From: a virus
Taxonomy: Duplodnaviria > Heunggongvirae > Uroviricota > Caudoviricetes
Strand: one strand, 5' to 3'
Virus record (IMG/VR): IMGVR_UViG_2541047698_000010
Length of the DNA stretch: 15,255 nucleotides
A model generated the notes under the pieces. That model was not told where the DNA came from. It ran no database searches and worked only from the letters and a program-made list of their open reading frames with translations. This document shows, in pieces, positions 3,603-5,014 of the stretch. The translations under genes were made by a program, and so were the position numbers. The first letter of the stretch is position 1. Each line of letters starts with the position of its first letter.

Positions 3603-3965
3603 TTAACGACCTGCTGCGCGGAGTTTTCCGTCAGGTTCACCGGCAAGAGTCAGTAATTGTCCCTGGTCTTCCTGCAGAATAGTCAGGCGACCACCGCGAT
3701 TGACATACATCGGCGTTTCGGTGGTGTCTTCTTCGGAAATTTTCCCGCGGTTAGTTGGGCGAACATATGAGAGTTTGTGTTTGATTTTCACACGGTTCTC
3801 ATCAAACGGTTCGATTTCCAGATTGAGTGAGACCTTCCCTTTGGTTTTCGTGTTCATCACACCGGAAGCGACCTCACTGAGAACTGCGCCGATTTTGGTT
3901 TCAAATACGCCGCCGTCCAGCTCCCCGATAAATGCCTGCACATCAGTACTGCGTTCGCTAGCCAT
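3603..3965 (-). CDS. yfdP: Hypothetical early protein (YfdP-like, 120 aa)
   Basis: Start chosen at MASERSTDVQ (ATG 3965) with a GAGGAG Shine-Dalgarno. The ORF-track N-terminal extension into the GC-rich region is Arg/Cys/Gly-rich and looks non-coding. Confidence 0.6.
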   Translation of the reverse strand: MASERSTDVQAFIGELDGGVFETKIGAVLSEVASGVMNTKTKGKVSLNLEIEPFDENRVKIKHKLSYVRPTNRGKISEEDTTETPMYVNRGGRLTILQEDQGQLLTLAGEPDGKLRAAGR

Positions 3966-4014
3966 TTTGCTGCTCCTCATCATATCGACCCTGCAAGGTC
4001 GGTTGGTTTCTCCA

Positions 4015-4101
4015 CAAAACAGAGAAGAACACCTGCGGTGGCAGCCGCCCGGATGGATTGGGTTATGAGCCCGTCGTCCGGTGATGCTCTTCTCTGTTTT
4101 G
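4015..4101. repeat. Perfect inverted repeat: 14-bp arms (4015-4028 / 4088-4101) around a 59-nt GC-rich loop
   Basis: CAAAACAGAGAAGA at 4015-4028 is the exact reverse complement of 4088-4101. An inner CACC/GGTG pair (4030-4033 / 4080-4083) extends the stem. Confidence 0.7.
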
Positions 4102-4102
4102 C

Positions 4103-4148
4103 AAAAAAGGACGGTACCAGCCGGAAGCAAGGGTACAAACTGGTACCG
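4103..4148 (-). terminator. Candidate intrinsic terminator on the leftward transcript (tL-like), about 140 nt upstream of yfdP
   Basis: 9-bp perfect stem CGGTACCAG (4112-4120) / CTGGTACCG (4140-4148) with a 19-nt loop. On the minus strand it is followed by UCCUUUUUUGC (plus A-run 4103-4108). Confidence 0.5.
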
Positions 4149-4149
4149 C

Positions 4150-4367
4150 CAGGACTACACACAGCATAAAGTTGTGGTGCCGGGTGCCTCCCGGTGCCTG
4201 GCGAAGGTTGCACACCAGGCGGGTGGGTATCCACAGAAGGTCGACTGTCAGCCTCAACCTTAACCCGCGTGCGCTGAGCCGCATTCACCACAACGCTAAG
4301 GATTCTCTCTGGTTGAAAATACTTAGCTGTTATGTGCCTGCTTTTAGCCACATCAGGCGAGGTGGAC
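4150..4367. other. GC-rich, highly structured non-coding block (candidate cis-acting RNA element or ncRNA)
   Basis: GC content clearly above the flanks. Several nested inverted repeats (GCCTGG/CCAGGC at about 4197-4220; AAGGTTG/CAACCTT at 4204-4210 / 4255-4261; GTGG/CCAC at 4223-4234). The ORFs here are Arg/Pro/Gly-rich with no Shine-Dalgarno. Confidence 0.35.
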
Positions 4368-4988: not shown

Positions 4989-4990
4989 TA

Positions 4991-5014
4991 AGCGTCCTGT
5001 AGGGCGCTTTTTTG
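4991..5014 (+). terminator. Intrinsic terminator of the plus-strand zinc-ribbon gene
   Basis: Stem AGCGTCC (4991-4997) / GGGCGCT (5002-5008) with one G-U pair, loop TGTA, followed by TTTTTTG. Confidence 0.6.

Follow-up and report, generated by a model that had tools for sequence, protein, structure and literature searches.

An inverted repeat in a lambdoid early-left leader is the basal helix of a conserved minus-strand RNA with a hairpin tip identical to part of initiator tRNA

Structured leader RNAs and RNase III sites are already known in temperate phages. Hairpins processed by RNase III are found in the lambda N leader and sib, at the R sites of T7 and in the processing of DicF in the Qin dicB operon; the C4 RNA of phage P1 represses icd/ant, resembles a tRNA closely enough for RNase P to process it and acts on its own transcript; and the species 1 and 2 RNAs of T4 are stable non-tRNA RNAs co-transcribed in a phage tRNA cluster. 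The protein-independent put RNAs of HK022 are approximately 70 nt long with two stem-loops (PMC9378689). Here we analyse a 15,255-nt stretch of phage DNA (Caudoviricetes; IMG/VR record IMGVR_UViG_2541047698_000010), hereafter the window, in which an original prediction had picked out a perfect inverted repeat ahead of yfdP, the first gene of the early-left operon. In the minus-strand RNA this repeat forms the base of a conserved structure, a three-way junction that appears to be an undescribed RNA family. Similar to the lambda, T7 and DicF hairpins, this element has a long intramolecular helix in a temperate-phage early transcript, beside a small RNA (sRNA) and upstream of the first open reading frame (ORF); unlike them, its helix closes a three-way junction with a tRNA-like arm, its cleavage by RNase III is proposed here, and the sequences show no similarity. 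With the sRNAs STnc100, PasD and sRNA-17 (RF02076; 10.64898/2026.05.13.724894; PMC7719688) it shares its settings, early-left leaders and the ban operon of phage P1, and the words in its closing stem are related to theirs (CACAAC/GUUGUG). It is nevertheless a separate unit, which starts where the RF02076 match ends, lies beyond the upstream terminator at which sRNA-17 ends, and is also found without STnc100.

The left arm of the repeat (4015–4028, CAAAACAGAGAAGA) is fully complementary to the right arm (4088–4101, TCTTCTCTGTTTTG), giving 14 bp with 59 nt between them, as originally described. No other perfect inverted repeat in the window with a loop of up to 100 nt reaches 14 bp, and this one is the longest; none of 300 dinucleotide-preserving shuffles of the window reached 14 bp (maximum 13 bp), which bears out the earlier view that chance is an unlikely origin. 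With imperfect pairing (83%) each arm lengthens to 24 nt, and a 26-bp helix forms in the minus-strand RNA once G·U pairs are counted. The spacer has the predicted size and is GC-rich (66% G+C, counted from the window sequence) but is not a loop: it folds into two hairpins, P2 at 4049–4081 and P3 at 4035–4048. The long stem-loop foreseen in the leader thus stands as a 20–26-bp helix on the minus strand, closing a three-way junction rather than a single large loop.

The closing helix, P1, has 20 bp, and 26 bp when it is extended into the U-tract of the upstream terminator in the minimum-energy fold. RNAalifold, run on 30 copies, independently predicts the three-way junction and the same U-tract/GGAGAA extension (columns 4–9 with 124–129). 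An unpaired A lies at each junction of P1 (4082 and 4034). The 106-nt fold has an energy of −51.1 kcal/mol (z −6.67), and a 151-nt region folds better as minus strand than as plus strand (−71.6 versus −64.5 kcal/mol). A covariance model, R1, built only from copies with the 20-bp P1 (long-stem copies, hereafter type A), scores the window element at 120.5 bits on the minus strand (E 9e-30) and at 36.2 bits on the plus strand.

Scanning IMG/VR with a sequence pattern yielded 120 loci with 91 distinct 170-nt variants, and the pairing statistics below rest on an alignment of 30 diverse copies (A2). The region is conserved in SfV, SfII and SfIV, in mEp460, cdtI and Stx2/Stx2c phages, and in phiNP and others; a copy in the K-12 prophage e14 lies upstream of xisE beneath the annotated ORF ymfH, and an unannotated copy in ST64B is 77% identical. 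Alignment of homologous prophages, the check that the original prediction had proposed, shows that pairing is maintained, with compensatory changes. For the junction as we specified it, standard pairs occupy 94.9% of 1020 pair cells, as against 37–48% when partners are slid by 1–3 columns, and both sides have changed together at 11 pairs in 49 cells; the observed values were reached in 0 of 500 shuffles. Within P1, 95.3% of cells are paired and double changes occur at 6 pairs, with compensatory swaps from G-C to C-G in 13 sequences, from A-U to G-C in 6 and from C-G to A-U in 6. The P1 cells also hold 47 G·U and 5 A·C combinations, so the selected molecule is the minus-strand RNA, rather than the DNA or a plus-strand RNA, in agreement with the strand originally predicted; gene order points to the same strand. 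The centre of P1 (columns 20/113; window 4092/4024) is a conserved mismatch, unpaired in 21 of the 30 homologs, and the repeat looks perfect in the window because this copy, among few, has a Watson–Crick pair there.

Invariant columns concentrate in P2, unpaired bases included, and in the 3′ flank, (G/A)UG-GAGAAA. P1 and P3 vary through covariation, unlike the invariant P2, of which the basal pair alternates between A-U and G-C. P3 ranges from 14 to about 40 nt in length. In the flank, GUG or AUG precedes GGAGAAA, which is kept in nearly all type A copies, including two without the upstream U-tract. A scan of GTDB with one genome per species and seven loop positions left free found approximately 28 true members, each supported by the covariance model at 99–129 bits; pattern matches in other phyla reached no significant model score and are due to chance. 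The true members are confined to Enterobacterales, apart from records that are probably misassigned, and the structure is kept in more than 12 genera; those represented include Escherichia, Shigella, Citrobacter, Enterobacter, Kosakonia, Phytobacter, Atlantibacter, Mixta, Erwinia, Leclercia, Buttiauxella, Pseudescherichia, Pseudocitrobacter and Raoultella. In all of these members the P2 loop starts with CUCAU, followed by AA or UC; UA is also present at this place among the IMG/VR and phage copies. Because the arm and the start of its loop are invariant, which a bare RNase III site would not require, P2 appears to be read by a sequence-specific factor.

The tip of P2, CGGGCUCAUAACCC, is identical to nucleotides 28–41 of the Escherichia coli initiator tRNA (tRNA-fMet) at all 14 positions. 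The window and tRNA-fMet share no longer exact match than this 14-mer, which consists of three consecutive G-C pairs plus the loop CUCAUAA and has the 7-nt loop and U33 of a tRNA anticodon arm. The tRNA-fMet sequence used here occurs at 100% identity in all 5426 of 5426 complete E. coli genomes, annotated as tRNA-Met, with a median of four copies. Outside the 14-mer, no similarity between tRNA-fMet and the element was found. Nor is a cloverleaf recognised, as ARAGORN calls nothing in the window or in the tRNA-array relatives described below, and the Rfam tRNA model has no match at E values of up to 10 in the window or on the Klebsiella-phage copy.

The same P2/P3 core recurs in two further settings beyond the lambdoid early-left leaders of many Enterobacterales genera, namely at the ends of Klebsiella-phage tRNA arrays and in the ban operon of phage P1. 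Klebsiella-type lambdoid phages (GZ7, for example) and a Raoultella genome carry it downstream of Q, as the closing unit of a tRNA array. These relatives, hereafter type B, start 6 nt past the CCA of the preceding tRNA, are 70–71 nt long and unannotated, and fold as the same three-way junction with a CAU ‘anticodon’ loop. The long helix is replaced by a 6-bp stem, GGCCUG/CAGGCC, with an acceptor-like start (G1-C72/G2-C71/C3-G70), and the unit ends in ACCA or GCCA; an encoded NCCA after the acceptor stem is thus a feature of type B within its tRNA array, not of the window copy. R1 aligns type B over model positions 24–86 at approximately 36–43 bits. Similar to tRNA genes and other cluster RNAs, type B occupies the last array slot with tRNA-like spacing, an acceptor-like stem and NCCA, around a P2 tip that corresponds to the tRNA-fMet arm. 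Canonical tRNAs differ in having a four-way rather than a three-way junction and in their D arm and T loop, which the element lacks, and the window copy departs further through its 20-bp stem and missing CCA.

In the ban operon of phage P1, two tandem copies follow trnN and trnT on the ban strand (R1, 35.7 and 27.7 bits), with basal stems of 18–21 bp and the tip GGG-(U/G)UCAUAU-CCC. A third long-stem module precedes them, of which the internal hairpin is a T-arm look-alike (GGGUUCGAAUCCC), and an STnc100-like RNA follows them; the annotated upl and plp cover these modules on the opposite strand. What recurs is a small tRNA-arm look-alike enclosed by a long closing helix and co-transcribed with tRNAs and sRNAs, in phage operons that are silent in the lysogen.

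At 100% identity, the window matches Escherichia phage PhiR49_1, which is lambdoid and has Q but no annotated N; in its genome the element is single-copy. As originally placed, the element lies between a terminator (hairpin 4112–4148 with the T-run 4103–4108) and the yfdP start codon (3965–3963). The upstream sRNA gene matches the full-length RF02076 model at 40.3 bits (E 2.6e-7), below the gathering score of 47, and the match stops at 4101, where P1 starts, leaving the element itself outside RF02076. In mEp460-type prophages, which share window 3960–4151 at 97% identity, sRNA-17 of E. coli K1 ends at the homologous terminator hairpin as mapped by rapid amplification of cDNA ends (RACE), and its length is 193 nt by RACE and Northern blot (PMC7719688). 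Placing a resistance cassette over the sRNA-17/terminator block raised yfdP approximately 95-fold from near zero in the lysogen (PMC7719688). Because of this rise, the terminator is taken to be active in lysogens, where the operon is silent, and the element itself is no block to transcription. The same rise is indirect evidence that the helix lies on a transcribed strand. A plus-strand ORF of 242 aa, together with its terminator, sits between the pL-like promoter and the sRNA; owing to this position, early-left transcription from pL would run antisense through it.

Downstream of the element, the short GC hairpin with a UUGCAG loop looks, from its sequence, like a boxB-like protein-binding hairpin, and hairpins with a U(U/G)GCAG loop on differing stems recur in most homologous loci. 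The gene order then continues as yfdP, yfdQ, an HD-superfamily hydrolase gene, eaE, yfdT and int. Several diverse loci (for example, L033, L034 and L042) repeat the arrangement of cI, pL with operators, a short leader or sRNA, a terminator, the element, a hairpin and the first gene. Coordinates are collected in Table 1.

Table 1 Coordinates of the element, its parts, its neighbours and its relatives (window positions unless a locus is named)
Feature	Position	Strand	Basis or detail
Whole element, three-way-junction RNA with conserved flanks	4002–4111	minus	Covariance model R1, fold
P1, 5′ strand, GCAAAACAGAGAAGAGCAUC	4083–4102	minus	Alignment columns 10–29; includes right arm 4088–4101
P1, 3′ strand, GGUGUUCUUCUCUGUUUUGU	4014–4033	minus	Alignment columns 104–123; includes left arm 4015–4028
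P2 arm, CCGGACGACGGGCUCAUAACCCAAUCCAUCCGG	4049–4081	minus	Invariant alignment columns, covarying basal pair
P2 tip, CGGGCUCAUAACCC, identity to tRNA-fMet anticodon stem-loop	4060–4073	minus	Sequence comparison
P3 hairpin, GCGGCUGCCACCGC	4035–4048	minus	Double changes at 3 of 4 pairs
Upstream terminator U-tract, can lengthen P1 by pairing with GGAGAA	4103–4108	minus	Minimum-energy fold, RNAalifold
Conserved 3′ flank, GGAGAAA	4007–4013	minus	Homolog alignment
cI, then its terminator	5840–5166	minus	
pL-like promoter	5126–5099	minus	
Terminator of plus-strand ORF	4990–5009	plus	
Convergent ORF, 242 aa	4223–4951	plus	No confident Pfam family
STnc100-like sRNA gene	4101–4324	minus	Rfam RF02076, full-length model
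sRNA terminator hairpin, outside the element	4112–4148	minus	Perfect 9-bp arms; 3′ end of STnc100 match
Short GC hairpin, ACCGACCUUGCAGGGUCGAU, between element and yfdP ribosome-binding site	3984–4003	minus	UUGCAG loop
yfdP, first early-left gene	3603–3965	minus	Shine–Dalgarno GAGGAG 3973–3978; start codon 3965
Type B tRNA-like gene	L004 2478–2543 (Klebsiella phage GZ7)		
Further type B genes	L021, L023, L045, L049, L054, L059, L068, L085, L107, L192		
Phage P1 modules	L005 1910–2606 (AF234172 68077–72108, reverse complement)	locus minus strand	

As one of its arms copies the anticodon arm of the initiator tRNA, the element is probably an excised RNA module, and not a plain hairpin. The processing scheme that we propose, and to which we give roughly even chances, is that P1 serves as a substrate for RNase III and that the P2 arm is read by a partner acting in trans. 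Upon induction, early-left transcription would read through the terminator and the element would fold; RNase III would then cut the 20–26-bp helix, separating the upstream sRNA from the yfdP mRNA and releasing, or defining, a small P2/P3 core, the invariant arm of which would be recognised by the trans-acting partner. The type B core would be freed by tRNA-processing enzymes instead, through RNase P and 3′ trimming. The helix has the length expected of an RNase III substrate (approximately 20–24 bp, about two turns), with 20 bp in 30 of 30 homologs and 26 in the window. The published in vivo substrate model for RNase III has 24 positions in an intramolecular stem, of which 2 separate the cut sites and 11 lie to either side of these, and double cleavage leaves 2-nt 3′ overhangs (PMC6212723). 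The structure, strand, conservation and contexts of the element and its identity to tRNA-fMet are shown here, and cleavage by RNase III, the freeing of a stable core and a partner for P2, whatever its identity, are steps that we infer. Several points weigh against the scheme. The central mismatch of P1 in 21 of the 30 homologs could alter or block double-strand cleavage; and the scheme explains neither the conserved GGAGAAA flank nor how polymerase passes the terminator just upstream. The GGG/CCC stem of 3 bp at the P2 tip never varies, which makes covariation uninformative there, tRNA detectors reject the window copy and its relatives, and the window copy ends after P1 in GUGGAGAAAC, without CCA.

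One rival reading, in line with the RNase III processing site offered in the original prediction, is a site acting only in cis, a hairpin for RNase III or for stability in the leader of yfdP, of the lambda N-leader type, in which the internal arms would have no function. A conserved 20–26-bp helix on the sense strand of an mRNA leader is what such a hairpin would look like, but sequence conservation is strongest in P2, including its unpaired bases, and not in P1, and the P2/P3 core recurs in tRNA arrays with a 6-bp stem and NCCA, where the long double-stranded helix is absent. Neither a plain RNase III site nor a translational operator, also suggested originally, accounts for the conserved sequence of P2, and we consider a cis-only hairpin rather unlikely. 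The identity with tRNA-fMet raises the prospect that the freed core engages a reader of that tRNA, acting as a decoy or modulating translation initiation, with the 30S P site together with initiation factor 3 (IF3), methionyl-tRNA synthetase or a tRNA-fMet-specific anticodon nuclease (enteric VapC/MvpT) as proposed targets. The element and its relatives would then be a family of minimal phage tRNA mimics, three-way junctions without a D arm that present an initiator anticodon arm, and they would be freed from polycistronic transcripts, whether early or late, through RNase III where the stem is long and through RNase P with 3′ trimming where NCCA is present, to act on host translation initiation or to divert a nuclease or toxin specific for initiator tRNA. 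The full 14-nt identity includes the three G-C pairs typical of initiators, U33 and CAU are retained across genera and in phage P1, type B copies sit in tRNA arrays with an acceptor-like start and an NCCA end, and a neighbouring phage P1 module imitates a T arm. Phage tRNAs that neutralise tRNA-cleaving defences offer a precedent (PMC11464382). However, nothing resembles tRNA-fMet beyond the 14-mer, loop positions 37–38 vary (AA, UA, UC and AU), there is no D arm or T loop, tRNA detectors do not accept the element, and CCA is missing from the window copy; on balance, mimicry, whether by the single element or by such a family, seems quite unlikely.

Similar to C4 of phages P1 and P7 (RF01695), the element is a small multi-helix phage RNA within an operon leader, a three-way junction co-transcribed upstream of its putative target, and its loop CUCAUAA fits the YUNR U-turn motif. 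An antisense role, in which this loop would pair with the start region of the first gene, or with another phage mRNA, and repress translation, finds some encouragement in AUGAG, which starts 33 of approximately 97 distinct downstream genes and in the window overlaps the yfdP Shine–Dalgarno sequence. Beyond AUG, however, complementarity to the downstream ribosome-binding region is not conserved, as other genes start with AUGAU, AUGAA, AUGUC, AUGGA or AUGUU while the loop stays unchanged; the first genes differ in type (YfdP-, RdgC-like-, HD-hydrolase- and Xis-type), RF01695 has no match at E values of up to 10, and no a2/b2-type repeats were seen. These mismatches make antisense action improbable. 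Still less credit can be given to a put-like RNA that would bind RNA polymerase and confer resistance to terminators downstream in the early-left operon. As with HK022 put, the element is a structured RNA in a pL-proximal lambdoid leader, its interior consists of two stem-loops of approximately 50–60 nt in total, and no N is annotated in the one full genome examined; yet R1 finds nothing in HK022, the element lies after rather than before the nearest terminator, and neither the long closing helix nor the tRNA-array relatives have a counterpart in put. The least probable origins, which we deem scarcely credible, are a DNA palindrome for protein binding or recombination, a decaying tRNA relic or part of a coding region such as ymfH. 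A perfect palindrome is present in the DNA, and ORFs are annotated across the element in some records, but the 47:5 asymmetry between G·U and A·C, the compensatory changes and the variable-length P3 insertions all disfavour the DNA site for a protein that had been suggested originally, and structure has been maintained across the genera listed above. Homolog lengths of 110, 111, 112, 113, 114, 133 and 137 nt differ by amounts that are not multiples of three, some homologs have stops in every frame, and ORFs overlapping the element have no Pfam match; a ymfH-like coding region was rejected on the frame-breaking lengths and stops. The ymfH of e14, which spans an STnc100-like stretch and the element, is probably not a real gene.

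Other identities were also considered. At gathering thresholds, neither the window nor the complete phage genome has any Rfam match, and a search reporting E values returns only the neighbouring STnc100-like sRNA and noise. P1 is not an intrinsic terminator, as it is followed on the minus strand by GUGGAGAAACC with no U-tract, and no terminator-like site is found at P1 on either strand. A miniature inverted-repeat transposable element or other insertion element was rejected, given a median of 1 copy per positive E. coli genome and the same prophage position in every locus examined. A small leader ORF that would open at the conserved GUG/AUG behind P1 was dismissed by eye on its unconserved downstream sequence and length, and a boxA-like UGCUCUUC in the 3′ strand of P1 was dropped when the window copy, GUUCUUC, was seen to depart from the motif. 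Within the searchable literature, searches by gene names, concepts and literal sequence strings returned no description of the element, and only the neighbouring sRNAs were found.

Of 5426 complete E. coli genomes, 2487 (46%) carry the element at a coverage of at least 80%, in up to 5 copies per genome, where it is unannotated or lies under hypothetical proteins; its carriers include Stx, SfV, ST64B and P1-type phages. It lies where the operon leading on to xis and int begins, and adjoins sRNAs under study in pathogenic E. coli (STnc100, PasD and sRNA-17). Annotation would improve with its recognition, as ymfH and possibly upl and plp of phage P1 overlie RNA modules. The copy of the tRNA-fMet arm, together with the NCCA-bearing relatives, provides a testable hypothesis of binding to the 30S P site or to methionyl-tRNA synthetase, or of a decoy for an anticodon nuclease. 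If a family of tRNA mimics were indeed at work, it would constitute an RNA-based device for takeover or counter-defence in about half of sequenced E. coli strains.

An STnc100-like sRNA is found upstream, by blastn, in 94 of 127 core-motif loci. The notion that STnc100 precedes every copy was rejected, as six divergent loci carry other leaders. Among the leaders without STnc100, those of L064 and L076 share a conserved motif 30–90 nt upstream of the element, GACGAUAUCUGAG...UUUAAAAAC(A/G)GAUGGGAG(U/C)CGGUGGAAGCCCG, which may be a further structured RNA. In L106, a 133-nt RNA lies approximately 300–170 nt upstream of the element, where other phages carry STnc100. CCA follows its closing stem, GUUGUGG/CCACAAC, and the RNA also has a segment like a D arm and a T arm of canonical appearance (GUGGGUUCGAAUCCCAC); these sequence features suggest that the closing stem of the STnc100 family may derive from a tRNA acceptor stem.

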